Part shown: in pieces, positions 6,518 to 42,202 of the stretch | Numbering within the stretch: position 1 is the first letter of the stretch | Layout of the letters: each line of letters opens with the position of its first letter | Source: Kofleriaceae bacterium | Lineage (GTDB): Bacteria > Myxococcota_A > Polyangia > Haliangiales > Haliangiaceae | Assembly (NCBI GenBank): GCA_046597055.1 | Contig: JBKJLC010000271.1 | Span: 1-42,202, forward strand | Reading direction: 5' to 3' | Length of the DNA stretch: 42,202 nucleotides | Notes under the pieces: generated by a model | What the model was told of the DNA's origin: nothing | The model's input: the letters and a program-made list of their open reading frames with translations, nothing else | Database searches by the model: none | Translations under genes and position numbers: made by a program

Positions 6518-9500
6518 TCACCGGGCCAGCGCGGCCCGGTAGATCGCGATCAGCGCGTCGTCGATGCGCGGGCGCTGGACGCCGAGCCCGGCGAGCACCG
6601 CGACCGTGCGCGCGCACGGCCATGGGCCCATGGCCAGGCCGAAGCGGGCGGGAAAGAACGACGCCAGCGGCGCGAGCCGCGACCCCGGCGCCCGGGTCAG
6701 CGCGGCCCGGAAGTCGGGATAGCTCGACGGCACCAGCGGCGCGCCGGCGGCGACCAGCGCGCGGCCGAGCCCCGCGTGCGACAGCGACTGGTCGGCGTTG
6801 GCGAGGTGGTAGGGCCCGCCGCCGCGCGGCCGCGCGATCAGCAGGGCGGCGATCGCCTCGGCGACGAAGTCGACCGGGGTCATGTCGACGATCGCGTCGT
6901 CGCGATCGAGGTAGCGGCCGAGCTCGAGCATGCCGGCCAGGTAGCGACTGAGGAAGTCGTCGGGGTTGCCGACCCCGCGCCGGGTGTGGCCGGCGATCAT
7001 CGCGGGCCGGTAGATCGCGACCGGCAGGCCGGCGGCGCCGGCGCGGCGCACGTGCTGCTCGGCTACCCACTTCGACAGCGCGTACGGGGTGCCGAGGTGG
7101 GCCGCGGCCAGCGTCAGCGCGCTGTCCTCGTCGCCGTCGACGGGCACCGTGCTGATGGTCGACACGTGGTGGAACGGGAGGCCGCGGCGGGCGGCGAGCG
7201 CGAGGAGCGCGACCGTGCCGAGCACGTTGGGCGCGCGCAGCGCCGGGTAGCTCGCGAGCCAGCTCACGGTGGCGCCGGCATGGACGATCGCGTCGACGCT
7301 GGCGGCGAGCCCGGCCCGGGCGGTGGCGGTGAGCCCGAGCTCGGGCGCGGCCAGGTCGGCGACCACGACCCGCACGCGGTCGCCGTCGACCGCGATCGGG
7401 ATGGCGCGCGCGGCCAAGGCCGCCGCCAGCCGGGCCGCGGCCGACGCGCTGTCCGGCGACCGGACGAGGCAGACCACCCGCAGGCCGCGCCCGCGCAGGG
7501 CCTCGACCAGGTGGGCGCCGAGGAAGCCGGTGGCGCCGGTGAGGAGCACGGTCCCGATCGCGGCGCCGACGTCGGTCACCCGGGGCGCGACCGGCAGCGC
7601 CAGATCGGCGTCGACCTGGGCGGCGGCGGCCGCGGGCGGATGCTCGTCGCCGAAGCGGCCGAGCCGCACCGCCAGGTCCTCGAGCGAGGCGGCCTCGAAC
7701 CACCACGCCAGCGGCACCTCGCGGCCGAGCTCCTCGCCCAGCGCCGCCAGGATCTCGGCGGCGGCCAGCGAGTCGACGCCAGCCTCGCCGAGCGGCTCGC
7801 GCGGCGACGCGGTGCGGCCCAGCACCCGGCTGGCGGCGCGGACGACGCGCGCGCGCAGATCGTCGTCGGCGACCGCCGCCTCGTCGTCGATGCTGGTGGC
7901 GGCGCTGCCGCTGGCGAGCGCGGCCAGCGCGGCGCCGTGGCGCTCGGCCAGCGCGACCCGGGCCAGCTTGCCGCTGGCGGTGAGCCGGCCGTCGTCGGCG
8001 GTGAGCGGCGCCGGCGCGAGCCACACGCCGCGCGGCAGCTCGTAGGCGGCCAGCCCGGCCGAGCGCCCGTGCGCCCGCACCGCCGCCAGCACCGCCGCGG
8101 CCGCGCCCGGCGCCGCGGCCAGCGTGGCGAGCGGGTCGCCGGCGGGCACCGGCTCGCCGAGCAACCCGGCCAGCACCGCGGGGTGCGGCACGATCAGCGC
8201 CGCGACCCCGGCCGCGCCCGAGGCCGCGTGCACGTAGACCTGATCGACGACCGCCGCCGACGCCAGCACGGTCTCGATCCGCTCGGCCGACACGAACTCG
8301 CCCTGCGCCAGCTTCACCGTGTTGCGGACCCGGCCGATCACGCGGACCCGCCCGGCAAGGTCGTGCTCGCCGAGATCGCCGGTGGCGAAGAACCCCTCGC
8401 CGTCGATCGCGGCGTCGGTGGCGGCGGGATCGCCGAGGTAGCCCGCGATCACGTGCGGCGTGCGCACCCAGAGCTCGCCGCGCTCGGGCTCGCCGGCCCG
8501 GCCCACCACCGCCGGCGCATCGACCACCGGCCGCAGCTGGACCTCGACGCCGGCCAGCACCGTGCCGTCGAACGCGATCGACCCGACCTCGGTGCTGCCG
8601 TAGCCCTCGCTGACCCACAGATCGGCGAAGCAGCGGCGCAGGAACCCCAGCACCTCGGCGCCGACCGGCGCGCTGCCGACCGACACCGCGAGCAGGCGGT
8701 CGCCGAACGCGGCTCGACTGTCGGCCAGGACCCGGGCCTCGATCGCCGCGCGCGGCGCCGACGGGTCGGCCGCCAGCGCGGCCCGGAGCCGCCGCTGATG
8801 GCCGGCGTACAGCACCTCGTAGAGACGCGGGACCGAGCCGAGCGTGGTCGGCGCCAGCGCGCGCAGCTCGCTCGCGAGGTGGGCCCCGCCGCGCGAGAAG
8901 CCGATCGTGCCGCCGTGCACGATCACCGACGGCAGGTACATGCGCTCGCTCAGGTGCGACAGCGGCTGGAACGACAGGTGCTGCGGCGAGTGCCCGACCG
9001 GATAGCTCTGCAGCATGGCGTGGAAGCCGGCGTAGGTGCGCATCGCGCCCTTCGGCGTCCCGGTCGAGCCGCTGGTGAACAGCACCGCGTACAGCTCGTC
9101 CTCGCCGCGCATCGCCGGCGGCGACACCGCGGCGGTGGTCCCCTCGGCGACCAGCGCGTCGAAGCCGATCCGGCCCGGGCCGGCGGCGTCGTCGTCGCAC
9201 ACGACCAGCAGTCGCAGGCTGTCGGCCGCCAGCCGCGCGACCCGGTCGGCGTCGGCCGGCTCGCAGATCACGCAGGTCGGGCGGGCCCGCGCGATGATCT
9301 GCGCGAGCCGGTCGTCGGGCTCCTCGGGCGCGATCGGCACCACCACGTAGCCACGGGCCAGCGCGGCCAGGTCGGCCATCACCCACTCGGGCCGGTTGCG
9401 GGTCATCGCCGCGAGCACGACCCGAGCCGCGCCCAGGCCCGGCTCCAGCCGCGCCGCGATCCCGCGGCCGAGGGCCATCGCCCGGGTCCACACCGCGCCG

Positions 9501-10483
9501 TAGGTCAGCGACGGCGCATAGCGACCGTCGTCGCCGCGCGCCACGAACAGCGGGCGGTCGACGTGCAGCCCGAAGCTCCGCCGCAGGGTCGCGGCCAGGG
9601 TGTCGGCGTACAGCGCAGCCGCCAGGACCTCGGCGCCAATCACCGCCAGGGACACCGCCTGTCCCGCTGGCGCGACCGCGGTGACCCGCAGGTAGCGCGC
9701 GACCACGCCACCGGCGGTGAGCGAGGTCCCGACCGAAGGCTCGACCGTGCGGGTGACGGTCAGCTCGCTGCCCGGCGGCGGCGCGCCCGACGGCATCACG
9801 AAGCCGTACCCGTGGATCACCAGGCGCGCGTCGCGCGGCACCGACCCCAGCTCGATCCGGATCTGCGACAGGTACATCGAGGTCCCGAGGTCGAGCTCCC
9901 ACCACGGCGCCGACTCGGCCGCGGTCGGCTCGGCCCACGGCATGGGTGAGCCCGCCGGCGACCGCACCAGGCTCGACTGGCGCGTGAAGCGATGAAAGGC
10001 GACATCGAACAGCGGCACGGTCTCGTCGCGCCCGTCGAGGACCCGGACCAGCGCGCGCCGCGCGACCCGCAGGTACGCGCACACGGTCGCGCCCTCGACG
10101 CCGGCGAGCTCGATCGCCGGGCCACCCGCGGTGAGCACGCGCGCGGGTCCGTCACCCTGCACGATCTCGAGCGTCCACCCCTCGCGCCAGCCGTGGCCAC
10201 GCACCACCCGCGGCGCCAGCTCGAGGCTCACCCGGTCGGCGTCGAAGCCGAGCGCGAGCACGACCTCGCCGTCCTGCAGCTGCACCTCGGCGCGGAAGCC
10301 CGCGTCGTCGACGCCCGCCATGCGCTCGATTCCGCCATCGTGAACGAACCGCGCCCGCAGCGCCGCGCGCGCCAGCGCGGCGAACAGCGGCGCCTCTTCG
10401 GGCGTCCACCGGATCAAGGACACGCCGGCGGGCGATGCACGCGCAGCTCCCGTGGTCTCGTCGGTCCCGGCACCAGCGGACAT
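6518..10483 (-). CDS. Carboxylic acid reductase-like A-T-R enzyme with ~300-aa N-terminal extension
   Basis: A domain: FTSGSTGTPKG, GYGSTE, TGDL, KLAQGEFV. Carrier domain: GVDSL. Thioester reductase: LLTGATGFLG, YALSK, IYRP. ATG 10483 is preceded by a TACCGT box. Confidence 0.87.
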   Translation of the reverse strand: MSAGAGTDETTGAARASPAGVSLIRWTPEEAPLFAALARAALRARFVHDGGIERMAGVDDAGFRAEVQLQDGEVVLALGFDADRVSLELAPRVVRGHGWREGWTLEIVQGDGPARVLTAGGPAIELAGVEGATVCAYLRVARRALVRVLDGRDETVPLFDVAFHRFTRQSSLVRSPAGSPMPWAEPTAAESAPWWELDLGTSMYLSQIRIELGSVPRDARLVIHGYGFVMPSGAPPPGSELTVTRTVEPSVGTSLTAGGVVARYLRVTAVAPAGQAVSLAVIGAEVLAAALYADTLAATLRRSFGLHVDRPLFVARGDDGRYAPSLTYGAVWTRAMALGRGIAARLEPGLGAARVVLAAMTRNRPEWVMADLAALARGYVVVPIAPEEPDDRLAQIIARARPTCVICEPADADRVARLAADSLRLLVVCDDDAAGPGRIGFDALVAEGTTAAVSPPAMRGEDELYAVLFTSGSTGTPKGAMRTYAGFHAMLQSYPVGHSPQHLSFQPLSHLSERMYLPSVIVHGGTIGFSRGGAHLASELRALAPTTLGSVPRLYEVLYAGHQRRLRAALAADPSAPRAAIEARVLADSRAAFGDRLLAVSVGSAPVGAEVLGFLRRCFADLWVSEGYGSTEVGSIAFDGTVLAGVEVQLRPVVDAPAVVGRAGEPERGELWVRTPHVIAGYLGDPAATDAAIDGEGFFATGDLGEHDLAGRVRVIGRVRNTVKLAQGEFVSAERIETVLASAAVVDQVYVHAASGAAGVAALIVPHPAVLAGLLGEPVPAGDPLATLAAAPGAAAAVLAAVRAHGRSAGLAAYELPRGVWLAPAPLTADDGRLTASGKLARVALAERHGAALAALASGSAATSIDDEAAVADDDLRARVVRAASRVLGRTASPREPLGEAGVDSLAAAEILAALGEELGREVPLAWWFEAASLEDLAVRLGRFGDEHPPAAAAAQVDADLALPVAPRVTDVGAAIGTVLLTGATGFLGAHLVEALRGRGLRVVCLVRSPDSASAAARLAAALAARAIPIAVDGDRVRVVVADLAAPELGLTATARAGLAASVDAIVHAGATVSWLASYPALRAPNVLGTVALLALAARRGLPFHHVSTISTVPVDGDEDSALTLAAAHLGTPYALSKWVAEQHVRRAGAAGLPVAIYRPAMIAGHTRRGVGNPDDFLSRYLAGMLELGRYLDRDDAIVDMTPVDFVAEAIAALLIARPRGGGPYHLANADQSLSHAGLGRALVAAGAPLVPSSYPDFRAALTRAPGSRLAPLASFFPARFGLAMGPWPCARTVAVLAGLGVQRPRIDDALIAIYRAALAR

Positions 10484-10689
10484 CGGCGCGACGGTACCGC
10501 GGCGCGCCGCTGGCCAGCGCGCGCGGGCGACCGGCGTGGTCACGGCAAACAGCGGCACCTGCCCCTTCGGGTCGTTGGATCGCCGGGCCCGCGGGCCCAG
10601 AGTGGCGCGCGTGAAGGAATGCGCGCGCCAGCGTGGCTGTTGATTCAGCCGGTGAGACCTGCAACTCCGCCCTGCGCCGCGCGTCGTCC

Positions 10690-23486: not shown

Positions 23487-26441
23487 ATGCTCACTCGTCT
23501 CGCGATACGCGTACGCTGGCTGGTTCTTCCCCTGCTGATGGTCCTGGGCTGCCTCGAGGGCAGCTCCAGCGCACCTGATCTCGCCACCGAGTCGAGCGAG
23601 CTGGTCGAGGGTGACTTCTGCTATCTGCCCTCGTATGGCCGCGGCGTGGGGTCGATTCCCACCGTGTGCCCGGCCGGCACTGAGTACGATGCAGGGCTCT
23701 GCTACGGCCTGTGCGATGCCGGCTTCGACGGCGTCGGCCCGGTGTGCTGGAGGTCCTGCCCCGCGGGCTACATCGATGACGGCGCGTTCTGCCGCAAGGA
23801 CGTCATCATCGTCGGCAAGCCCTCGTACGGCCGCGGCGCCGGCGGCGTGCCCGACGCGTGTCCGGCCGGCTCCCAGCGCGACGGCGCGCTGTGCTACCCG
23901 GACTGCGCCGGTGGCTACTACGGCGTCGGCCCGGTGTGCTGGCAGGCGTGCCCGGCCGGCTACACCGACGACGGCGCGTTCTGCCGCCGGGACGCCGTCA
24001 TCATCGGCTCCAACCGGGACAGCTGTCCCTGGTACGACACCTGCGGCGTGACCCTCGCCCGCGGCTGCTCGTCGTGCCCGGCCGGCTACATCAATGATGG
24101 CTGTACCTGCCGCCAGGACGCCCACATCTTCGCCAAGGCCACGTACGGGCGCGGCGGCGGCAGCCCGCTGACCTGTCGCGCCGGCCTGCAGAACGACGCC
24201 GGGCTCTGCTATCCGGCGTGCGCCGGCGGCTACGCCGGCGCGGGCCCGGTGTGCTGGGGCAGCTGCCCCGCCGGCTACGCCGACGACGGCGCAACCTGCC
24301 GGCTCGACGCGATCATCTTCGCCAAGGACACCCACGTGCGCGGCGTCGGCAGCCTGCTGTCGTGCAGCGACGGGCTCGAATCGGATGCCGGGCTCTGCTA
24401 CGAGACGTGCGCCGCCAGCTACGACGGCATCGGCCCGGTCTGCTGGGGTGTGTGCCCGGCCGGCATGGTCGCGTGCGGCGCCGGCTGCGCGGTGTCGTCG
24501 GCCGTCTGCGCCAACGTGATCGTCAGTCAGGTCATCGCCCCGTTCGACGTGCTGGCCAACCTGACGTTGATGGCGGTCAGCTTCGGCAGCTCGACCGTGT
24601 TCCAGTCGGGCGTGCGGGCGGCGCTGTCGGCGGCCCAGCAGGCGACGCTGCGCGAGACCCTGCGCGCCGCCCTGCGCCAGGCCGCGCAGGAGGCGGGCCA
24701 GGCCGCCACCGAGGAGTACATCGAGACCAACGCCGAGATCCTCGCCAACGCGGCCGAGGTCGGCGAGATGGACTGGACGCTGCTCGATCCGACCGGGATC
24801 GCGTCGTTCGTCCAGGCCTTCAATCACCCGACCTGCGACGCCCCGCCCCCGGGCGCCGGCAGCGGTGCCGCGCAGGACGCCGACCTCGACGGCGTCATCA
24901 ACGCGACCGACAACTGCCCGGCGCTGAACAACCCGGATCAGCGCGACACCGACGGCGACCGCCAGGGCGACGCCTGCGACGCCGACGACGACAACGACGG
25001 CGCGCTCGACCCGTCGGACAGCTGCCCCCGCCAGGCCAACACCGATCAGCGCGACGCCGACGCTGACGGCCAGGGCGATCCGTGCGATCCCGACGACGAC
25101 AACGACCTCGTGCTCGACGCCGCCGACAACTGCGGCTTCGTCGTCAACCCCGACCAGCGCGACGCGGATCGCGACGGCAGCGGCGACCCGTGCGACGGCG
25201 ACCTCGATGGTGACGGCGTGGCCAACCCCACCGACACCTGCCCGGCCAGCCCGGACCCGCTGCAGGAGGACGCCGACCGCGATGGCGCCGGTGACGCCTG
25301 CGACGACGACGACGACGGCGACGGCGCGCTCGACGCCGCCGACAACTGCCTCCTGATCGGCAACGCCGATCAGGCCGACGCCGATGGCGATCACCTCGGC
25401 AACGCCTGCGACGGGGACGACGACGGCGACGACGTGCGCGATGACGTCGACAGCTGCCCGCTGGTCGCCAACTTCGATCAGCTCGACCACGACGGCGACC
25501 GTGCCGGCGACGCCTGCGATCCCGATGACGACGACGACCGCGTCCTCGACCCGACCGACAACTGCGCGATGGTGGCCAACCCCGACCAGGGCGACCACGA
25601 CCGCGACGGCCTCGGCGACGAGTGCGACGCCGACGACGACAACGACGGGATCCTCGACGACGTCGACACCTGCATCGTGGCGGCGAACCCCGACCAGATC
25701 GACAACGACCGCGACGGCGCCGGCGATGCCTGTGATGGCGACGACGACAACGACGGCGTCGACGACGGCGCCGACAACTGCGCCTTCACCGCCAACCTCG
25801 ATCAGCTCGATCTCGACGCCGACGGCAGCGGCGACCGGTGTGATGCCGACGTCGATGGTGACACGGTCGGGAACGACGTCGACAACTGCCCGGTCCAGCC
25901 CAACCCGACCCAGGTCGACCTCGACCTGGACCGGCTGGGCGACTCGTGCGACGGCGACCTCGACGGCGACACCGTGCCGAACGCCGCCGACAGCTGCCCG
26001 TTCGTGCGCAACGTCGATCAGCGCGACCACGAGGGCGACGGCCTGGGTGACGTCTGCGACGACGATGACGACAACGACGGCGTGGTCGATGGCGGCGACA
26101 ACTGCCCGCGCGCCGCCAACCCGGCGCAGGGCGACTTCGACCGCGACGGCCTCGGCGACGTGTGCGACGGTGACCGCGACGCCGACGGGGTGGCCAACGA
26201 CGCCGACGTCTGCGAGCTCACCCCGATCGCGGCCGTGATCGACCCGGCCAGCGGCTGCTCGATCGCGCAGCTGGTGCCCTGCGCCGGCCCGCGCGGCGCG
26301 TCGACCTCGTGGCGCAACCACGGCGCCTACGTGTCGACCGTGACCCAGACCGCCGGTCAGTTCGTCGCGCTCGGGCTGATCTCGGCCGCCGACCGGGACC
26401 GCATCGTCTCGGCCGCCGGCCGCAGCAGCTGCGGCAAGTAG
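23487..26441 (+). CDS. Large lipoprotein: Cys-rich repeats + helical spacer + thrombospondin type-3 (Ca-binding) repeats
   Basis: GGAG upstream of the start; signal ending VLGC; four YGRG..C..G...DAGLCY..C..G(Y/F).G.GPVCW..CP repeats; 12 full 36-aa D.D.DG..D..DNC....N.DQ.D.D.DG.GD.CD units; C-terminal WRNHGAYVS domain. Confidence 0.88.
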   Translation: MLTRLAIRVRWLVLPLLMVLGCLEGSSSAPDLATESSELVEGDFCYLPSYGRGVGSIPTVCPAGTEYDAGLCYGLCDAGFDGVGPVCWRSCPAGYIDDGAFCRKDVIIVGKPSYGRGAGGVPDACPAGSQRDGALCYPDCAGGYYGVGPVCWQACPAGYTDDGAFCRRDAVIIGSNRDSCPWYDTCGVTLARGCSSCPAGYINDGCTCRQDAHIFAKATYGRGGGSPLTCRAGLQNDAGLCYPACAGGYAGAGPVCWGSCPAGYADDGATCRLDAIIFAKDTHVRGVGSLLSCSDGLESDAGLCYETCAASYDGIGPVCWGVCPAGMVACGAGCAVSSAVCANVIVSQVIAPFDVLANLTLMAVSFGSSTVFQSGVRAALSAAQQATLRETLRAALRQAAQEAGQAATEEYIETNAEILANAAEVGEMDWTLLDPTGIASFVQAFNHPTCDAPPPGAGSGAAQDADLDGVINATDNCPALNNPDQRDTDGDRQGDACDADDDNDGALDPSDSCPRQANTDQRDADADGQGDPCDPDDDNDLVLDAADNCGFVVNPDQRDADRDGSGDPCDGDLDGDGVANPTDTCPASPDPLQEDADRDGAGDACDDDDDGDGALDAADNCLLIGNADQADADGDHLGNACDGDDDGDDVRDDVDSCPLVANFDQLDHDGDRAGDACDPDDDDDRVLDPTDNCAMVANPDQGDHDRDGLGDECDADDDNDGILDDVDTCIVAANPDQIDNDRDGAGDACDGDDDNDGVDDGADNCAFTANLDQLDLDADGSGDRCDADVDGDTVGNDVDNCPVQPNPTQVDLDLDRLGDSCDGDLDGDTVPNAADSCPFVRNVDQRDHEGDGLGDVCDDDDDNDGVVDGGDNCPRAANPAQGDFDRDGLGDVCDGDRDADGVANDADVCELTPIAAVIDPASGCSIAQLVPCAGPRGASTSWRNHGAYVSTVTQTAGQFVALGLISAADRDRIVSAAGRSSCGK
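24876..26213 (+). repeat. 108-bp coding tandem repeat (TSP3-type), 12 full units plus a partial one
   Basis: Counted from the translation: 36-aa period with a conserved Cys pair and Asp-rich pattern. Confidence 0.85.
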
Positions 26442-33630: not shown

Positions 33631-33915
33631 GTGAGTGAAATCAGTCTCGAAGTGTGGGACGCGACCGGGAACAAGCGTCTCGATGTCGCCGTCCCCGACG
33701 ATGTCGCGGTCGAGCGGATCTTGCTGGTGCTGGCCGACCGGCTGCATCTGCCCAAGCACGCGCCCGACGGCCAGCTGATGAGCTACAAGTTCCATCATCG
33801 GCGCCTCGGCGTGCAGCTGCTCGACGAGCAGACGCTCGCCGCGCAGCAGGTGGAGGCCGGCGACATCGTCCGGATCCAGCCCGAGATCACCGCCGGTGGC
33901 GACCTCCCCCGCTGA
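33631..33915 (+). CDS. Ubiquitin-like (beta-grasp) protein, 94 aa, C-terminus ...ITAGG-DLPR
   Basis: AGGAG at 33620-33624 then GTG 33631. Ub/YukD-like pattern ISLEV..RLDVAVPDDVAVERILLVL..YKF..LLDEQTLAAQQVEAGDIVRI with Gly89-Gly90. Appears only as the tail of the spurious 717-aa ORF in the track. Confidence 0.85.
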   Translation: MSEISLEVWDATGNKRLDVAVPDDVAVERILLVLADRLHLPKHAPDGQLMSYKFHHRRLGVQLLDEQTLAAQQVEAGDIVRIQPEITAGGDLPR

Positions 33916-35137
33916 GGTGCGGATCGCAGCGGCCGAGCTGGCCGACGCGGCGCACGACGATCGGTACCACCGCCAGTCCTTGATCGACTGGTGGGATCAG
34001 GCGCGCGTGGCCCGGACCCGGATCCTCGTGGTCGGCGCGGGCGCGCTCGGCAACGAGATCCTCAAGTCGCTCGCGCTGATCGGCAGCGGCTTCACCCTCG
34101 TCTACGATCCCGACCGGATCGAGCGATCGAACCTGTCGCGGAGCGTCCTGTTCCGGCAGGCCGACGAGGCCGACGGCAAGGCGGCCGTGGCCGTGCGGCA
34201 GATGCGCGAGATCAATCCGGGCGTCCACGCCCACGCGATCGCGGGCAACGTGCTCGACCAGGCCGGGCTCGGGGTCTTTCACTGGGCCGACGTCGTGATC
34301 GGCGCGGTCGACAACCGGGAAGCCCGCGTCTTCATCAACGGCGCGTGCGCGCGCACCGGCAAGACCTGGGTCGATGGCGCCATCGAGGGCCTGGCCGGCG
34401 TCGTCCGCGTCTTCGCGCCGGGTCAGGGCGCTTGTTACGAGTGCACGATGAACTCGACCGATCGCAAGCTGCTGGCGACCCGTCGCTCGTGTGCGCTGCT
34501 CGCCCGCGACGCCGTCGCGCGCGGCCACGTGCCGACCTCCGCGATCGCGGCGTCGGTCATCGGCGCCATGGAGGTCCAGGAGGCGATCAAGCTCGTCCAC
34601 GGGCAGCCGACGCTGACCGGCCACGGGCTCCACCTCGACGGGCTCCATGGCGAGATCAGCCGCGTGCGCTACCAGCGCCGCCCGGACTGCTCGGGCCATG
34701 ACGCGCTCGGCCCGATCGTGCCGCTCGGCCTCGGGGTCGACGACGTGACGCTCGGCGCCCTGCTCGAGCGCGCCGAGACCGCGCTGGGCGCCGGGGCCGC
34801 CCTCGATCTCTCGCGCGACGTGATCGTCAGCCTCACCTGCCCGACCTGCAGCACCCGGACGCCCGGGCGCACGGTCCTCGGCGCGGTGCGCGAGTCGCAG
34901 GCCGCGTGTCCGCGCTGTGCCACCCATCGCGTGGTCGAGATCACGTCGTCGATCAGCCGCGACAGCGACCTCGACCTGGGCCAGACGCCGGGCGAGCTCG
35001 GCCTGCCGCCGTTCGACATCATCGTGGCCCGTCAGGGCCTGGACCGGCAGGAGGCCTGGCTGTTCGACGGCGACGCCGCGCGGGTCCTGGGGTCATTGGC
35101 GGGGTCCCGGACGGGCCCCCAAGGGAATCCGACATGA
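33896..35137 (+). CDS. E1-like (ThiF/MoeB/UBA) activating enzyme with C-terminal Zn-ribbon region
   Basis: GAGALG, DPDRIERSNLSR, KA, AVDNREAR, CYEC, candidate catalytic Cys199 (RRSC), CSGH, extra CPTC...CPRC. No rhodanese domain. Alternative start GTG 33917. Confidence 0.92.
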   Translation: MATSPAEVRIAAAELADAAHDDRYHRQSLIDWWDQARVARTRILVVGAGALGNEILKSLALIGSGFTLVYDPDRIERSNLSRSVLFRQADEADGKAAVAVRQMREINPGVHAHAIAGNVLDQAGLGVFHWADVVIGAVDNREARVFINGACARTGKTWVDGAIEGLAGVVRVFAPGQGACYECTMNSTDRKLLATRRSCALLARDAVARGHVPTSAIAASVIGAMEVQEAIKLVHGQPTLTGHGLHLDGLHGEISRVRYQRRPDCSGHDALGPIVPLGLGVDDVTLGALLERAETALGAGAALDLSRDVIVSLTCPTCSTRTPGRTVLGAVRESQAACPRCATHRVVEITSSISRDSDLDLGQTPGELGLPPFDIIVARQGLDRQEAWLFDGDAARVLGSLAGSRTGPQGNPT

Positions 35138-36645
35138 GCTCACTCGACATCCGCGCGATCGACCAGACCCACCTGCGCCAGCAGCCGTGCCCGGCGACCA
35201 AGCACGAGCTGGCGGTGTTCCTCGCCGAGGAAGCCTTCGACCGCGCGGTCGCCCGCGGCGACAGCGACACCACCCGCGAGATCGGCGGCGTCCTCGTCGG
35301 CGAGCTGCTGCGCGATGCCGGCGGCCCGTATCTGCGCATCGACACCACGATCGATGCGCTGCACGCCGAGGAGAAGGGTGCCGAGCTGACGTTCACCCAC
35401 GCCACGTGGGAGCACATCCACAAGGAGATGGACACCCGCCATCAGGGCAAGAAGGTGGTGGGCTGGTACCACACCCACCCTGGCTTCGGCGTCTTCCTCT
35501 CCGACCGCGATCAGTTCATTCACAAGAGCTTCTTCAACCTCCCCTTCCAGGTCGCGTTCGTCTACGACCCGAAGAGCAAGGAGCACGGGCTGTTCACGTG
35601 GCGGGACAACGAGGTGTGGCGCATGCGCCGCTACGCGATCGGCGACCGCGAGCACACCTGGGACGGCAATCGCGCCAGCGCCCGTCCGAGCGATGCGACC
35701 GAGAAGCCGGACGACGCCCGCCGCGACGCCCGCGACACCGCCCGGGATCGTGGCGAAGATCCGGGCCTGAATGGCTCGTTCGCGACGGTGGTCATGGTGG
35801 CGACCGTGCTGGTGCTGCTCGCGGGCTTCGCTGGCCACTGGTTCGGCTCGTCGGCCGCGAACGCCACGATCGGGCAGGCCCAGATCGAGATCGCCAAGGC
35901 CCGCAGCGACGGCGCCCAGCTCGCGGTCGCGTCCCTCGAGCACGACCTGGTCGGGCTGTTGCGCGCGACGCTCGGCGACCAGGCGGTCCACCAGCCGGTC
36001 GCCCAGGCAATCGCCGGGGTGGATCGGGCGCTGGCGAGCCTCGCCCCTGCGGTCCCCGGCGGGGCCACCGCCGGCGCCGCCGCGCCGAGCCCGGACCCGC
36101 GCCAGGCCGACGCGATCAGCCAGCTCAGGACCGCCCGCGAGGGCCTCCTGCGGTTGAGCGTGGATCGCAGCTCGGCCGAGGCGCTGCTCGCGGCGATCGA
36201 GCGAGCCACCCGCCAGGGTGGCGACGCCCGGGCCGATCTCGCCCGCGACGTGGCGGCCCAACGGTCGGGCATCGGTGGGCTGTACGCCGAGCTGGCGACC
36301 GAGGTCGTGAAGGCCGGCGATGTGCGTCGCGCCCAGCGCTTGCTCACGACGGCCGCGCTGCTCGATCCCGGCAATCGCCCGCGCTACGAGAAGCAGCTGC
36401 AGTCGTTCGCCCGGGGCGCCACGCTGCCGCGGGCCCCCGCGATCAAGGAAAGCGCGCCGGCCGCCACTTTCCCGGCAACCGCCCCCGCGACCGGGCCGAC
36501 AGCTGCGCCCGTAACCCCACCGACCGCCGCGCCCGCAACCCCACCGACCGCCCCGCCCGCACCGCCCGCGACGTTGCCGGCAACCGCCCCCGCGGTCGGG
36601 CCGACCGCCGGGCCGACCGCGAACGCCGACGGAGGAACCCGATGA
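35134..36645 (+). CDS. Membrane-anchored JAB/MPN+ (JAMM) metallo-isopeptidase
   Basis: REIGGVLVG and GWYHTHPGFGVFLSDRD give an intact E...HxH-x7-S-x2-D motif; one TM, a helical region with a TPR-like motif and a Pro/Ala/Thr tail. ATG 35134 has an ATGA overlap. Confidence 0.92.
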   Translation: MSSLDIRAIDQTHLRQQPCPATKHELAVFLAEEAFDRAVARGDSDTTREIGGVLVGELLRDAGGPYLRIDTTIDALHAEEKGAELTFTHATWEHIHKEMDTRHQGKKVVGWYHTHPGFGVFLSDRDQFIHKSFFNLPFQVAFVYDPKSKEHGLFTWRDNEVWRMRRYAIGDREHTWDGNRASARPSDATEKPDDARRDARDTARDRGEDPGLNGSFATVVMVATVLVLLAGFAGHWFGSSAANATIGQAQIEIAKARSDGAQLAVASLEHDLVGLLRATLGDQAVHQPVAQAIAGVDRALASLAPAVPGGATAGAAAPSPDPRQADAISQLRTAREGLLRLSVDRSSAEALLAAIERATRQGGDARADLARDVAAQRSGIGGLYAELATEVVKAGDVRRAQRLLTTAALLDPGNRPRYEKQLQSFARGATLPRAPAIKESAPAATFPATAPATGPTAAPVTPPTAAPATPPTAPPAPPATLPATAPAVGPTAGPTANADGGTR

Positions 36646-38003
36646 GCGACAACGAGAAGCTTCGAATCGACCGACAGGAGCTGTTCGACCCGGGGGTCGA
36701 CCAGGCCCTCGCGCGCGAACGCGCTGGTCGCGAACGCGTCGTCGCGGATGCGCCGCCGGTCTCGGCCCTGCGCCGGCTGCTGCTCAACAGCCTGTTTCAC
36801 ATGCCGCTGGCGGCGGTGCTCGGCGCGCTGGTCTGCTGGCTGCTGCTCGAGCCCAAGATCACCGACATGCCGGTGGTCGGCGGCGAGGTGATCCTGGTCA
36901 ACGCCGAGCCGTTCGACGCGGACGACGGCATCCTCGCCATCACGATCGGCGACCACGCCGTCTACGTCGACCCCGAGCGGGTGGTCCTCGAGCCCGGCGC
37001 CAACGGCGAGCCCGCGCTCGCCAGCGTCGACGACATCCAGGTCGGCGACCGGATCGAGGCGACCGGGCTCGCCGCCGGTAGCAACCTGGCCGCCGCCGCG
37101 CTCCGCCCGACCAGCCGGACCGACTCCTACGGGGAGCTGGCCGAGCCGCAGTGGCCGATGTTCGTGCTGTTCCCGCTGACGGCGGCGCTGATCGCGTTCG
37201 GCCTGCTGTTCGCCGAGGGCCTCACGACCCGCAACTGGATCCGGATGATCGAGCGGTCGCTGCTCGGCAGCTTCCTGGCGGCGCTGTTCGCGTGCCTCGC
37301 GTTCGTGCCCGCTGGCCTGTTCATGACGATCTCCGACCGCGTGTTCGCGTCGGAGGCGGCGCGGCATCCGGAGCTGCTCGTCGTGACGGTCGATGACGTC
37401 GGCGGCTTCACCTTCCTCGTGGTCGTCGTGTGTCGCAGCGCGGCGTGGGCATGCATCGGCGCGGCGACCGGGCTCGGCATGAACCTGGTCCGGTCGACGC
37501 GGGCCCAGCTCCGGAACTCGACGATCGGCGGCGCGCTCGGCGGCGCGATCGGCGGCATGTTCTTCGATCCGATCGCGCGCTTCCTGCAGACGACGATGTT
37601 CGCCGATGCCGCGGTGTCACGGGCGGTCGGCCTGGTCGCGGTCGGGCTGTCGGTCGGCATCTTCGTGGCCCTGGTCGAGCGGCTGGCGCGGGACGCCTGG
37701 CTGCGCGTGCGGACCGGCCCGCTCGCCGGCAAGTCGTTCATCCTCTACAAGACGCCCTCGGTCATCGGCAACGCGCCGTCGTCCGACGTCTATCTGTACA
37801 AGGACGCGGAGATCGATCCGGCCCACGCGTCGATCCACCGGGTCGGCACGATGTACGAGATCGAAGACCTGGGCAGTCGCATGGGCACCCAGGTCGCCGG
37901 CACCAAGGTCCGGCGCCGGCGGCTGACCTCCGGCGATCAGATTGTCATTGGCAGCACGATCCTCGATTTCGAGGAACGGCAACAACGCACGCAGCTCGCG
38001 TGA
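36642..38003 (+). CDS. Polytopic membrane protein with C-terminal FHA-fold domain
   Basis: GGAGG at 36631 and ATGA overlap; about 6 hydrophobic segments; C-terminal WLRVRTGPLAGKSFIL..IG...DV.L....I...HASI....IEDLGS..GT.V.......L.SGD.I.IG is the FHA pattern. Confidence 0.85.
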   Translation: MSDNEKLRIDRQELFDPGVDQALARERAGRERVVADAPPVSALRRLLLNSLFHMPLAAVLGALVCWLLLEPKITDMPVVGGEVILVNAEPFDADDGILAITIGDHAVYVDPERVVLEPGANGEPALASVDDIQVGDRIEATGLAAGSNLAAAALRPTSRTDSYGELAEPQWPMFVLFPLTAALIAFGLLFAEGLTTRNWIRMIERSLLGSFLAALFACLAFVPAGLFMTISDRVFASEAARHPELLVVTVDDVGGFTFLVVVVCRSAAWACIGAATGLGMNLVRSTRAQLRNSTIGGALGGAIGGMFFDPIARFLQTTMFADAAVSRAVGLVAVGLSVGIFVALVERLARDAWLRVRTGPLAGKSFILYKTPSVIGNAPSSDVYLYKDAEIDPAHASIHRVGTMYEIEDLGSRMGTQVAGTKVRRRRLTSGDQIVIGSTILDFEERQQRTQLA

Positions 38004-38004
38004 G

Positions 38005-38604
38005 ATGGAACGAACGACGATGGAAGCTGTGCGAATTCTCAAGGTCAATCTCAAGCTCGCCGGCAAGCCGTGCAAGTGGTGCCAGGTCCCGCTCGAGCTC
38101 GCCGAGGAAGCGGCGGTCTGCACCGCCTGCGAGGGCGAGCATCACCGCCGCTGCTGGGAGCCCAGCGGCGGCTGTGCCACCGTCGAGTGCGTGAACGCGC
38201 CGCTGCGGCGGCTCGACGCGCCCGGCCACCGGGCGATGCCGCTGCCGGCCGCGGCCGTGCTCGCCCCTGGCACCATGCACTGTCCGCGCTGCCGCGACAT
38301 CATCATGATGGGCAGTCCGCTGTGCCCCAGCTGCAACGCGGTGACGAGCCCCGACGGCCTCTACCATGGCCCGAAGACGAACGCGCCCGGCGCGGTGTCG
38401 TCGCTCGTCTACGGCATCATCGGCGTCTTCATCTGCGGCATCATCGCGGGTCCGATCGCGATCTCGAAGTCGAGTCAGGCGAAGCGCGAGATCGCCAGCA
38501 ACCCGACCTACGGCGGCGGCGGGCTCGCCAGCGCCGGCATGGTGCTGGGCATCGTCGACCTCGTGCTGTGGGCCGTCTTCCTGATCGCCAAGATCGGCGG
38601 ATAG
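38005..38604 (+). CDS. RING-like (C4HC3, Prok-RING type) + Zn ribbon + DUF4190-like 2-TM protein; candidate E3
   Basis: CKWC-x12-CTAC-x4-H-x2-CW-x5-C-x4-C; CPRC...CPSC; AVSSLVYGIIG...AKREI...GGGLASAGMVLG. Start is ATG 38005 or 38020. Confidence 0.8.
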   Translation: MERTTMEAVRILKVNLKLAGKPCKWCQVPLELAEEAAVCTACEGEHHRRCWEPSGGCATVECVNAPLRRLDAPGHRAMPLPAAAVLAPGTMHCPRCRDIIMMGSPLCPSCNAVTSPDGLYHGPKTNAPGAVSSLVYGIIGVFICGIIAGPIAISKSSQAKREIASNPTYGGGGLASAGMVLGIVDLVLWAVFLIAKIGG

Positions 38605-38608
38605 GCCG

Positions 38609-39025
38609 ATGGTCGGGGCGGGCCCGCGCGGCCGGATGCTCGATCTCGGCTGGGCGGCCCTGGTGGCCGCCCAGCTGGGCGCGGCGGCCGTGCTGGACCG
38701 CCGCGGCGACCAGCTCGCGTGGCCGGGCGGGTCACCGCTCGGCGGGGCCTGCCTGTCGCGCGCGCTGTTCGACGTCAGCTGTCCGTTCTGCGGCATGACC
38801 CGCAGCTTCGTCGCGCTGGCCGACGGCGAGCTGGGCGCCGCGGTCGGCTTCCACCCGGCGGGGCCGATCCTGTTCGCCGCGATGGTGGCGTTCCTGGTGG
38901 CGGTGGTCGTGGTCTGGGCACGGCGGGCGCCGCCGCTGTTCGCGCGCCGCCGGTTCCTGGTCGGGTTCGAGGCGGTCGTGCTCGTATGCATGGCGGTCGG
39001 TGTCTTCAAGATGGTGAGGAGCTAG
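38609..39025 (+). CDS. DUF2752-like membrane protein
   Basis: C-x9-CPFCGMTRS..AL..G....A..FHP signature flanked by three hydrophobic segments. Confidence 0.8.
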   Translation: MVGAGPRGRMLDLGWAALVAAQLGAAAVLDRRGDQLAWPGGSPLGGACLSRALFDVSCPFCGMTRSFVALADGELGAAVGFHPAGPILFAAMVAFLVAVVVVWARRAPPLFARRRFLVGFEAVVLVCMAVGVFKMVRS

Positions 39026-39027
39026 CG

Positions 39028-39567
39028 ATGACCCGTTGCGCGATCTGCTACACGGTCCTGAGCCAGGAGGAGCCGCGCACGGCGTGCCCCGAATGCCGGA
39101 CCGACTATCACAAGACCTGCTGGGACGAGATCGGCGGCTGCGGCACCTACGGGTGCCAGCGCGCCGCGGTCGCCCAGAAGCCGCCGGTGCCGGTGCTGGT
39201 CGGTGCCGGCTGGGGTGACACCAAGGAGTGTCCGGCGTGCACCTGCGAGATCAGCTCGAGCCTGCTCGTGTGCGCGTGCGGCGCCCGGTTCCCGTGGGCC
39301 GATGCGATGACGCGCGCGGAGTATCAGCGCTGGGGCGCGAGCCAGCAGGCGATCAAGACCTCACGCACGACCTTGATCTGCCTGTTCCTGCTGTCGCTGG
39401 TCGGGTTCACCGCACCGCTCGCGGGGCCGCTCGCGGGCGTCTACGCGTTCCGCAAGCGTGACCAGCTGGCCGGCACCGGCGGGACCTACCTGGCGATGGG
39501 CTATGGCAGCGCCGCGATCGGCGGCCTCTACGCGCTCCTGTTCGCGATCATCGCGCTGGGACACTGA
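39028..39567 (+). CDS. RING-like (C4HC3) + Zn ribbon + 2-TM protein; second candidate E3
   Basis: GAGGAG upstream of ATG 39028; CAIC-x12-CPEC-x4-H-x2-CW-x5-C-x4-C; CPAC...CAC; two C-terminal TM helices. Confidence 0.82.
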   Translation: MTRCAICYTVLSQEEPRTACPECRTDYHKTCWDEIGGCGTYGCQRAAVAQKPPVPVLVGAGWGDTKECPACTCEISSSLLVCACGARFPWADAMTRAEYQRWGASQQAIKTSRTTLICLFLLSLVGFTAPLAGPLAGVYAFRKRDQLAGTGGTYLAMGYGSAAIGGLYALLFAIIALGH

Positions 39568-39569
39568 CG

Positions 39570-40892
39570 ATGAGCGGGCCCGGCCACGTTGCACCGCCGG
39601 GTCCGCGCAAGCGGCGCTGGTTCCGTCGGGGGCCAGCGACCATCGCGACCCAGATGACGACGATCTGTCCGTGCTGCCAGGTGGCAGGACTGACCCGCCT
39701 CGCCCCCGGCCAGCCGTGCGGCGCGTGTCGGTCGCAGCAAGCCTGGACCGAGCTGGGCGCCGCGGGCCTCGTCGTCGATCACGACGCGATCGAGCAGGCC
39801 GTGCAGGCCCGGCGCGGTGAGGCAGCGGGCGCACCGGCGTGGCGGCGGCTCCTGGCGTGGGCACCGCCCGCGCTGACCCTGGGCGTCGCCGCGGTGGCAG
39901 CCTGGGCGACCGTCGCGCTGCTGTCGGCACGCCCGATCGGGCCGCTCGACGGGTTGATCGCGGACCTGCGCGGCGCGAGCCGGTGCGCCGCCCTGGTCGG
40001 GCTGCTCGCCCTGGTCGCCGGCGTGATCGCCACGGTCCGGCTGCGGCGGCAGCGGCATTTTCGCCGCCTGCCGTTCGTGATCGCGCACGCGGTGGCGGTC
40101 GTGATCGGAACCTCGGCGATGGCGATCGGCGGGCTGCACTGGCTCGCGCTGCGCAGCGCCGTCTCGGCCGCGTACACCTCGATGCCGGCGCGTACGTCGC
40201 TGGGCGTGGCGTCGCAGCTGGAGCGCATCATGGACGCGACCGTGGTGGTGCTGGCGCCCGACCGCGACGGCGATGGCCGCAACCCGGCCATGGGCACCGG
40301 CGCGATCGTCGCCGCCGACGACCACCGCGCCTGGATCGTCACGTGCAGCCATGTCGCGATGCCGTACGCCGCGGTCGGCGGGTATCGTCATGCGCGCGCG
40401 GCGCACCCGGTGTGGGTGCAGCTCAGCGACGGCCGCGGCGGTCGAGCCCGGGTGCGCTGGGCCGCGCCGCCGCCACTCGACCTGGTCGTGGTCGAGCTGC
40501 CGATCGAGCACCCACCGGCGCCGGTGGCGATCAGCCTCGACGCCGGGCTGCCGGTGTCGGCGGGCGTCACCTTCGTGCCGAATCCGTATCGCGACGGCTG
40601 GAAGGTGATCCACGGCGAGCTGCTGCGCCGCGTGCCTCACCGCACCCCGGCCGGCACCTACGACCTGCTGTACACGGATCTCCCCGTGATCCCCGGCGAC
40701 AGTGGCAGCGGGTTGTTCGACGCCCGCGGCCAGCTGATCGGGCTCAACACCTGGACCCGGCTCCGCCCCGGGGGTGCGTCCGAAGGCATCAGCCTGCCGT
40801 CCGAGACCATGCGCGCGGTGGTCGACGCGATCCAGCGCGGCACCCTCGACCAGCTCGATGACGCGCTTTCTTCACCGACGACGAGAGAGTGA
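39570..40892 (+). CDS. Membrane-anchored trypsin-like serine protease with N-terminal Zn ribbon
   Basis: CPCC...CGAC, three TM-like segments, GTGAIV, TCSHV (His), DLVVV (Asp), PGDSGSGLF (Ser), LIGLNT. No PDZ domain. The start may be ~28 codons downstream. Confidence 0.88.
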   Translation: MSGPGHVAPPGPRKRRWFRRGPATIATQMTTICPCCQVAGLTRLAPGQPCGACRSQQAWTELGAAGLVVDHDAIEQAVQARRGEAAGAPAWRRLLAWAPPALTLGVAAVAAWATVALLSARPIGPLDGLIADLRGASRCAALVGLLALVAGVIATVRLRRQRHFRRLPFVIAHAVAVVIGTSAMAIGGLHWLALRSAVSAAYTSMPARTSLGVASQLERIMDATVVVLAPDRDGDGRNPAMGTGAIVAADDHRAWIVTCSHVAMPYAAVGGYRHARAAHPVWVQLSDGRGGRARVRWAAPPPLDLVVVELPIEHPPAPVAISLDAGLPVSAGVTFVPNPYRDGWKVIHGELLRRVPHRTPAGTYDLLYTDLPVIPGDSGSGLFDARGQLIGLNTWTRLRPGGASEGISLPSETMRAVVDAIQRGTLDQLDDALSSPTTRE

Positions 40893-40895
40893 CCC

Positions 40896-41600
40896 ATGGA
40901 CAACGTACGGCTTCGCCGCTTGAAGGCCGACCACGAGGCGCTGCGCCGGCTCGCGCACCTCCATCCCAAGATCGAGATCGAAGGGGTGTTCGGCAACCCG
41001 CCCGAGCGCTACCGGCTGGTGCTCAAGGTCAAGTCCCTGCGCGAGCGCGGCGAGACCATCGAGACCGTCGACGAGCATCGCCTCGAGGTCACGATGCCGC
41101 GCGGCTATCCCCGGGACGCCCCGCTGTTCCGGATGCTCACGCCGGTGTTCCATCCGAACATCGCGCCGCACGCGGTCTGCATCGGCGATGACTGGACCGC
41201 GGGCGAGCCGCTCGATCTGCTGATCCAGCGGGTCGGCGAGATCCTCGCCTACCAGAGCTACAACACGAAGAGCCCGCTCAACGGCCGCGCCGCCCAGTGG
41301 GTCGACCAGCACCGCGATCAGGTCCCGATCGATCGCGAGGAGTTCTTCGTCGACCTGGCCGGGGCCGAGGCCCGCTCCGCCGACCCGGTCGACCCGGTTG
41401 GCTCGAGCGAGGCCGCGGTGGCGTGCGCGAACTGCGGTGCCGCGGTCGCCGGCAGCCCCGACATGACGGTGTGCCCCGCGTCGCACCCGCTGTGTGGAGA
41501 CTGCGCGGTCACGTGCAGCAGCTGCTCGACGGTGCTGTGCCTGGTCTGCGGCAGCTATCCGTGCGCGACCTGCGGTCCATCGGCCTCGGCGACCGGCTGA
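40896..41600 (+). CDS. E2 ubiquitin-conjugating (UBC-fold) enzyme fused to a C-terminal Cys/His cluster
   Basis: RLRRLKADHE helix 1, MPRGYPRDAP, TPVFHPNI, catalytic Cys95 (AVCIGDDW), SPLNGRAA. The C-terminal 50 aa contain 11 Cys and 1 His. Confidence 0.92.
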   Translation: MDNVRLRRLKADHEALRRLAHLHPKIEIEGVFGNPPERYRLVLKVKSLRERGETIETVDEHRLEVTMPRGYPRDAPLFRMLTPVFHPNIAPHAVCIGDDWTAGEPLDLLIQRVGEILAYQSYNTKSPLNGRAAQWVDQHRDQVPIDREEFFVDLAGAEARSADPVDPVGSSEAAVACANCGAAVAGSPDMTVCPASHPLCGDCAVTCSSCSTVLCLVCGSYPCATCGPSASATG

Positions 41601-41664
41601 CGAGCGCGCCGCGGCCACGGCCGTCGGTGGTGACGGTCGCGCCGACGCACATCGGCCGGCAGAC

Positions 41665-42177
41665 GGCAGACCTCGCGCTTGATCGTCTCGCCATGCGATC
41701 GAATGGACACATCCTCCCGGTGGCCGTGAGCCGGCGCCGCAGGCGCCGTGTCGAAGGGCCGACCGGTCACGCGCAGCCGCACGCGCAGCCGGACGCGCCG
41801 TCGGCGCGGCCAAGGTCCCGTCGCTGGCTCGATCCGGGGTCCCCGGGTGCATCGCTGGGCGGTGCCGTTGCCTCGACTCGCCGACGCCCTCACCACCCGG
41901 CCGTGGAACTTACGAGCGCTCTGGGACCTCGCCCCCGCCTCGGCTCGTCCTCCGTGCGGGTCACGAACACCGGGCACGTGCCCGGCGCCCCCTCGAGACT
42001 GATCACTTCCCTCCATGTGATCGAGCGCGCTCCCCGTGCCCGGTGGCCCGGAGCTGGTGCCGCAGGCGCCGTGTCGAAGGGCAGACCTCGGGATTGATCA
42101 CAAGTCTTCATGTGATCGGAAGCGCTCACCTTTCCCGGTGGCCCTGAGCCGGCGCCGCAGGCGCCGTGTCGAAGGGC
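41665..42177. repeat. Three copies of a ~95-bp palindromic REP/MITE-like repeat
   Basis: A 44-bp core CCCGGTGGCCnnGAGCyGGyGCCGCAGGCGCCGTGTCGAAGGGC occurs at 41716-41759, 42039-42082 and 42134-42177. Each is preceded by a GATCRY...GYGATC inverted repeat. Confidence 0.85.
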
Positions 42178-42202
42178 AGAGCGCCAAAGTGCCGCACGTG
42201 AT

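Follow-up and report, generated by a model that had tools for sequence, protein, structure and literature searches.

Why a bacterial JAMM protease should sit in the membrane, and what the part beyond its membrane helix does there, is the question raised by one gene in the window, the whole 42,202-nucleotide stretch of Kofleriaceae DNA that was analysed. The characterised JAMM proteases that we examined are soluble, as far as the excerpts describing them go, and the earlier note had read this one as a receptor-like deubiquitinase, with a cytoplasmic enzyme, a single transmembrane (TM) helix and an outer TPR-like domain responding to an external cue.

The operon around the JAMM gene

The JAMM gene is the third of nine tightly packed genes, which encode, in order:

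33631..33915, + strand: YukD-like ubiquitin-like protein (Ubl) of 94 aa, with a conserved end at Gly89 and a 5-residue extension (Pfam YukD, E 1.5e-9)
33896..35137, + strand: E1 of the ThiF family, with nucleotide-binding glycines, zinc cysteines and Cys199 (Pfam; Cys199 in 80/80)
35134..36645, + strand: single-pass membrane JAMM protease of 503 aa (open reading frame, hydropathy, Pfam, homologue alignment, AlphaFold model)
36642..38003, + strand: multi-pass membrane protein with a C-terminal FHA domain (Pfam, alignment, hydropathy)
38020..38604, + strand: candidate E3 with Prok-RING_1, zinc ribbon and DUF4190 and two TM helices (Pfam)
38609..39025, + strand: DUF2752 membrane protein (Pfam; in 6/15 closest loci)
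39028..39567, + strand: second Prok-RING_1 protein with two TM helices, candidate E3 (Pfam)
39570..40892, + strand: three-TM protein with a C-terminal trypsin-like serine protease domain (Pfam)
40896..41600, + strand: E2 (UQ_con) with an HPN motif, Cys95 and a Cys-rich tail (Pfam; HPN and Cys95 in 60-61/61)

The JAMM start codon, an ATG, overlaps the E1 stop, the JAMM stop overlaps the ATG of the FHA protein, and GC at third codon positions of the JAMM reading frame is 0.91. An upstream in-frame GTG at 34906 (579-aa frame) was rejected as the JAMM start because homologues begin at the methionine encoded at 35134. A long open frame at 34917-38003 was likewise discarded as the FHA frame running backward through GC-rich DNA, its homologues beginning at 36642. 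A search for a sigma-70 promoter found no site, and the one terminator-like site is what chance predicts. Downstream of the operon, 41600-42202 holds several copies of a 51-nt GC-rich intergenic repeat, a REP-like element with 139 matches of at least 35 nt on up to 86 contigs of the genome. Elsewhere in the window we detected a 984-aa protein with 13 matches to thrombospondin type 3 repeats (23487-26441) and, on the minus strand, a 1346-aa protein whose adenylation, carrier and terminal reductase domains make it carboxylic acid reductase-like or NRPS-like (6518-10558).

That a Ubl system accompanies the JAMM was borne out by a cognate Ubl, E1, E2 and RING set in the same operon. It comprises a Ubl with its terminal glycine (Gly89, 75/75), an E1 and an E2 with their conserved cysteines (Cys199, 80/80, and Cys95, 61/61), and two Prok-RING_1 proteins that both score above the Pfam cut-off and are the only two in the genome. 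From these genes, Ubl conjugation and its cleavage by the JAMM are predicted to occur here. Of the other eight operon proteins, five contain at least two TM helices.

The order Ubl-E1-JAMM was kept in all 15 of the closest genome loci, which come from Kofleriaceae, Myxococcales, Haliangium and one Planctomycetaceae MAG, and the run through to the E2 was kept in all 11 whose contigs extend far enough. Our own profiles detected the E1 in all 26 metagenome loci of at least 9 kb, the Ubl and a RING protein in 24 each, the E2 in 23, the FHA protein in 22 and the trypsin-like protein in 18. The FHA membrane gene lies immediately downstream of the JAMM in 59 of 90 loci with enough sequence. Neighbours at other loci (138 proteins scanned out of 159 picked from 34 loci, with crude gene calls) included 12 GYF_2 membrane proteins, 4 M48 proteases and 2 TM2 proteins. 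At three loci (L073, L084, L090) an M48 (Ste24/HtpX-like) membrane protease follows the JAMM at the usual FHA position, and another set (L017, L119-L128) carries related soluble, TM-less JAMMs in the order Ubl-E2-JAMM, mostly with a different Ubl end.

Canonical FHA domains bind phosphothreonine through an Arg, a Ser and an Asn. The FHA domain here (37760-37955) has none of the three, as is the case across 33 aligned homologues; its ligand may instead be the Ubl or some other partner. The same protein holds, in the loop after its first helix (36860-37130), an optional beta-rich domain of about 90 aa that is present in the Kofleriaceae clade and some others and absent in many.

Enzyme, anchor and outer part

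The JAMM protein divides into the following parts:

35134..35667, + strand: Rpn11-like JAMM/MPN+ domain, residues 1-178 (Pfam, PDB sequence and structure matches, conservation)
35674..35775, + strand: charged, variable, probably disordered linker, residues 181-214 (16% identity; pLDDT under 50)
35779..35835, + strand: transmembrane helix, residues 216-234, with a GxxxG-like motif at its end (hydropathy, homologues)
35845..36312, + strand: outer hairpin of coiled coil, residues 238-393, turning at a variable low-complexity loop (304-321) (model, period 3.5, structure comparison)
36256..36426, + strand: one TPR motif and a capping helix, residues about 375-431 (profile, superposition; 63% identity in close homologues)
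36439..36642, + strand: Pro/Ala/Thr-rich tail, residues 436-503, not conserved (homologue alignment)

The enzyme domain is intact, as the earlier note had claimed. Residues 1-178 have the MPN fold and match Pfam JAB above its cut-off (E 9.9e-10), and the catalytic Glu and the HxH-x7-S-x2-D zinc motif (E49, H113, H115, S123, D126) are invariant in 120/120 close and 88/88 distant homologues. By sequence, the solved structures closest to it are Rpn11 proteins (E 8.6e-7 for CsRpn11), and the AlphaFold model matches Caldiarchaeum Rpn11 (6fju) with a Foldseek E of 1.6e-10. Within the clade the JAMM domain shows 80% identity and the TPR cap 63%; the linker falls to 16% and the tail to 5%, with the helix (40%) and the coil (41-49%) in between.

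We called TM segments by hydropathy over 19 residues with a threshold of 1.6, a hydropathy scan rather than a trained topology predictor. Residues 216-234 form the sole strongly hydrophobic 19-mer (Kyte-Doolittle 2.36, next best 1.21), in line with the single TM helix claimed before. By the same measure the segment is present in 119/120 close homologues and, about 100 residues past the zinc motif, in 131 of 139 distant ones (147 further representatives minus 8 without the zinc motif). Among the JAMMs of 129 loci (three of which duplicate the window or another locus), 112 carry the TM segment, one is cut off, and 16 are closed reading frames without it, so the anchor is not universal; 3 of these 16 fall inside a mainly anchored clade. 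The predicted anchor is nonetheless a family-wide feature, and the check on its conservation that the earlier note had proposed came out in its favour.

No hydrophobic N-terminal segment was found in any of 254 homologues, so the folded zinc domain before the helix should remain in the cytoplasm. One relative (locus L026) carries a LysM domain past the helix, above cut-off, which fits a layout with the C terminus outside. The positive-inside signal is weak, Lys and Arg being richer on the N side in 34 proteins, richer on the C side in 24 and equal in 33 (n=91). The JAMM enzyme is most probably cytoplasmic, which is how the earlier note had placed it.

Beyond the helix, the AlphaFold model predicts helices at residues 215-280, 283-303, 322-393, 397-410 and 412-425. 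The stretch 322-395 has a hydrophobic period of 3.5, and in structural comparison residues 235-375 of the model resemble antiparallel coiled coils. Residues 375-433 of the model superpose on TPR helices (rmsd 1.6-2.8 A over 51-61 aa, Z about 8), and a profile built from 25 outer domains aligns with consensus TPR proteins across one stretch of 31-34 residues, which together identify at least one TPR helix pair. VIA-align Z values of 7.5-8.8 for the outer domain lie in the range that helical models reach by chance, so we accept only local TPR and coiled-coil likeness. Pfam reports no TPR in the JAMM protein itself, and TPR_2 is weakly matched by 8 of 88 members (best E 0.0039, below cut-off in single sequences). 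Thus the TPR-like region of the earlier note holds as one real motif, and we found no tandem array with a groove: there is one repeat and its cap, and the remaining 140 or so outer residues are coiled coil. The repetitive Pro/Ala/Thr tail is present as described and is poorly kept among 119 homologues (5% identity, 22% coverage). Foldseek with the outer domain gave no match at E 0.001, ESM Atlas feature matches (0.81-0.84) are a lead only, and a homodimer prediction for residues 208-433 scored 0.05 against a mark of 0.42, which is not evidence for or against. The outer-domain profile did not match the FHA-protein profile.

Across the family this outer part is conserved within a clade and replaced or nearly absent elsewhere. 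Its length ranges from 16 to 281 aa in 106 closed reading frames, which BLAST sorts into 39 groups, one with LysM; BLAST over-splits short and helical tails, and two of the 39 align mutually. The TPR-cap profile finds 38/131 representatives and 16/103 locus proteins. Fewer than 40 residues follow the helix in 8/103 locus proteins and 11/131 representatives, and relatives with tails of 16-21 aa retain the anchor.

These observations bear on a receptor-like deubiquitinase, in which an external cue bound by the outer domain would switch the enzyme in the cytoplasm; clustering that brings the enzyme together with the E3s, or draws it away from them, is the most plausible means. Receptors, too, can pair an unchanging enzyme with outer domains that are swapped from one member to the next, as here with coiled coil-TPR, LysM and short hairpins, the TPR cap is the best-conserved region outside the enzyme within the clade, which is also consistent with sensing, and the GxxxG-like motif at the helix end recurs in 101/120 close homologues. 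However, the 35-aa linker between enzyme and helix is variable and probably disordered, which argues against rigid signal transfer; the single TPR motif lacks a multi-repeat groove; some relatives have the short outer parts just counted; and antiparallel matches (model residues 1-142) would put the TPR beside the membrane and not at the tip, a low-confidence geometry (pTM 0.49). We consider a receptor unlikely. Of the earlier reading, the conserved anchor, a likely cytoplasmic enzyme and the cognate Ubl set were supported, and the TPR domain as an outer sensor was not, being a hairpin with one TPR that a minority of the family shares, joined to the enzyme by a variable linker and dispensed with by short-tailed relatives that keep the anchor. 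The outer part varies freely and, from these comparisons, looks more like a scaffold than a sensor. It is similarly doubtful that the proteins form a receptor deubiquitinase family in which a constant cytoplasmic JAMM with exchangeable periplasmic sensors (coiled coil-TPR, LysM and others) switches a membrane-embedded, E3-dependent Ubl cascade on or off. If true, such a family would respond to envelope damage or phage attachment and would be to bacteria what membrane ubiquitin signalling and ERAD are to eukaryotes.

Distribution and known systems

The system is patchy: 14 of 100 family genomes have it, as do 4 of 16 genomes from the genus, 3 of 301 in the phylum sample and, counting soluble forms, 35 of 301 from the phylum to which the Planctomycetaceae MAG belongs. 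Plasmid pCRI9333.03 of Crinalium epipsammum carries an E1, two small proteins, an E2 and a TM-anchored JAMM (L019:6369-11587), with a type IV coupling protein gene immediately downstream. In a JAMM tree made by a quick method (119 rows, with 10 of the 129 loci omitted, 2 as duplicates and the others as open-ended or short matches), the window's protein falls in a Kofleriaceae-Planctomycete group and tail types switch many times; the tree was not used to infer the order of events.

This patchiness, the relative on a cyanobacterial plasmid and the statement, in the portion of bioRxiv 2024.11.21.623966 available, that certain bacterial ubiquitination pathways counter phage would suit a phage-defence or conflict system comparable to Bil or type II CBASS, in which the membrane JAMM would restrain the system until infection or mature the Ubl to be attached to phage proteins at the membrane. 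Other results tell against it. None of the 138 neighbour proteins (crude gene calls) fell in a defence or integrase Pfam family at E 1e-4, and most were metabolic and transport genes; GC in the operon (0.721) is near that of the genome (0.723); PADLOC gave only weak, generic E1 and JAB matches in the operon; and no match to the system was found in 50,697 phage records. We regard a defence role as quite improbable. A further alternative is that the Ubl is never conjugated and serves as an adaptor for secretion or membrane-assembly machinery, like YukD in type VII secretion, with a JAMM that only trims it. Pfam does assign the Ubl to YukD, Bacillus YukD is reported as unconjugated in the section of PMC1779556 seen, and the plasmid copy adjoins a coupling protein gene, but the invariant E1 and E2 cysteines and Ubl glycine described above count against it, and no FtsK-like or WXG100 gene was found among the operon proteins or the 138 neighbours, making an adaptor very improbable indeed. 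We found no Pup ligase and one proteasome-family match in this 94%-complete genome, and so saw no 20S proteasome pair to receive the tag.

Prokaryotic Ubl/E1/E2/RING/JAB operons were reportedly predicted from genomes by Burroughs, Iyer and Aravind in Mol Biosyst in 2011. With that class the present operon shares a YukD-like Ubl, ThiF E1, UBC E2, Prok-RING_1 protein and JAB peptidase in one operon and a sporadic distribution; it differs in lying in a myxobacterial-type genome, its closest relatives being Kofleriaceae and Myxococcales MAGs, and in a JAB with a TM helix and a coiled coil-TPR outer domain, though a JAB with a TM helix may already appear in the 2011 paper and its supplement. In the literature searched, mostly open-access main texts, we found no description of a TM-anchored bacterial JAMM or of a test of this system. 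Such operons exist in Actinobacteria, Planctomycetes and Acidobacteria according to an extract of PMC4197634, and tri-ligase systems are mentioned in an extract of PMC7159879.

The best structural match to the enzyme domain is CsRpn11 of Caldiarchaeum subterraneum (6FJU, 6FJV, 6FNN; 24-25% identity), whose gene, as the passages available of PMC6043591 describe, is encoded with Ub, E1, E2 and RING, and which matures the ubiquitin precursor, deconjugates, and is activated by ubiquitin binding alone. In the same passages CsRpn11 is soluble and its Ub eukaryote-like, whereas here the enzyme is TM-anchored and the Ubl YukD-like; the word membrane is absent from the main text of that paper. Its map (section 6, as excerpted) omits 'bacterial lysM-associated JAMM sequences', so LysM-linked bacterial JAMMs had already been noticed. 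The Bil and Bub operons, in the parts available of bioRxiv 2024.11.21.623966 and PMC11601596, likewise combine a bacterial Ubl, E1, E2 and JAMM peptidase; as described in those parts they have four or fused components plus DUF6527, and RING, FHA and integral membrane subunits are not named. For BubE, a deconjugase that is a serine protease without a TM helix, peripheral association with membranes is proposed in the portion of PMC11601596 seen. The nine proteins here are encoded by separate genes and include no DUF6527 and no fused Ubl-E2, JAMM-E1 or E2-E1, which sets them apart from Bub, nor did we find among them a CD-NTase or E2-E1 fusion as in type II CBASS (Cap2/Cap3).

A proposed tethered maturase and deconjugase

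We propose, as the probable reading and with considerable room for doubt, that the protein is a membrane-tethered Ubl maturase and deconjugase that works beside membrane E3s, with its outer domain as a scaffold. The Ubl of this operon has five residues past Gly89, so trimming is needed. At 26 of 61 loci that glycine is already the last residue of the Ubl, and the JAMM site is intact in all 26, which means that maturation is not the sole job and that deconjugation must also be selected. Together with the dual activity of CsRpn11, these intact sites lead us to read the protein as both maturase and deconjugase.

In this scheme, the JAMM domain would face the cytoplasm and, judging by the patterns of Ubl ends, would clip the Ubl precursor after Gly89. 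The E1, E2 and membrane RING E3s would then join the Ubl to proteins that lie within the inner membrane or at its surface, and the tethered JAMM would remove the tag again at the same membrane, its TM helix keeping the enzyme near the ligases. The coiled-coil hairpin and single TPR may be a clade-specific scaffold touching the periplasmic parts of partner membrane proteins, the likeliest partner by gene order being the FHA membrane protein of the following gene. Membrane proteases linked to the system hint at a role in membrane-protein quality control or an envelope-stress response, the weakest step of the scheme.

Eukaryotes have TM-anchored deubiquitinases, USP19 and USP30, and membrane-bound ERAD-type RING ligases. 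The likeness to our operon, a deconjugase and ligases in one membrane, is an analogy only, and USP19 and USP30 are cysteine proteases of another fold whereas the enzyme here is a JAMM zinc protease. The family offers a natural series, from 16-residue tails to 280-residue outer domains and from Ubls with a C-terminal extension to Ubls without one, so that the question of anchor versus sensor is directly testable by swaps. As its writers and eraser are all predicted integral membrane proteins, the Ubl system probably edits membrane proteins, and it bears on the origin of membrane-linked ubiquitin signalling.
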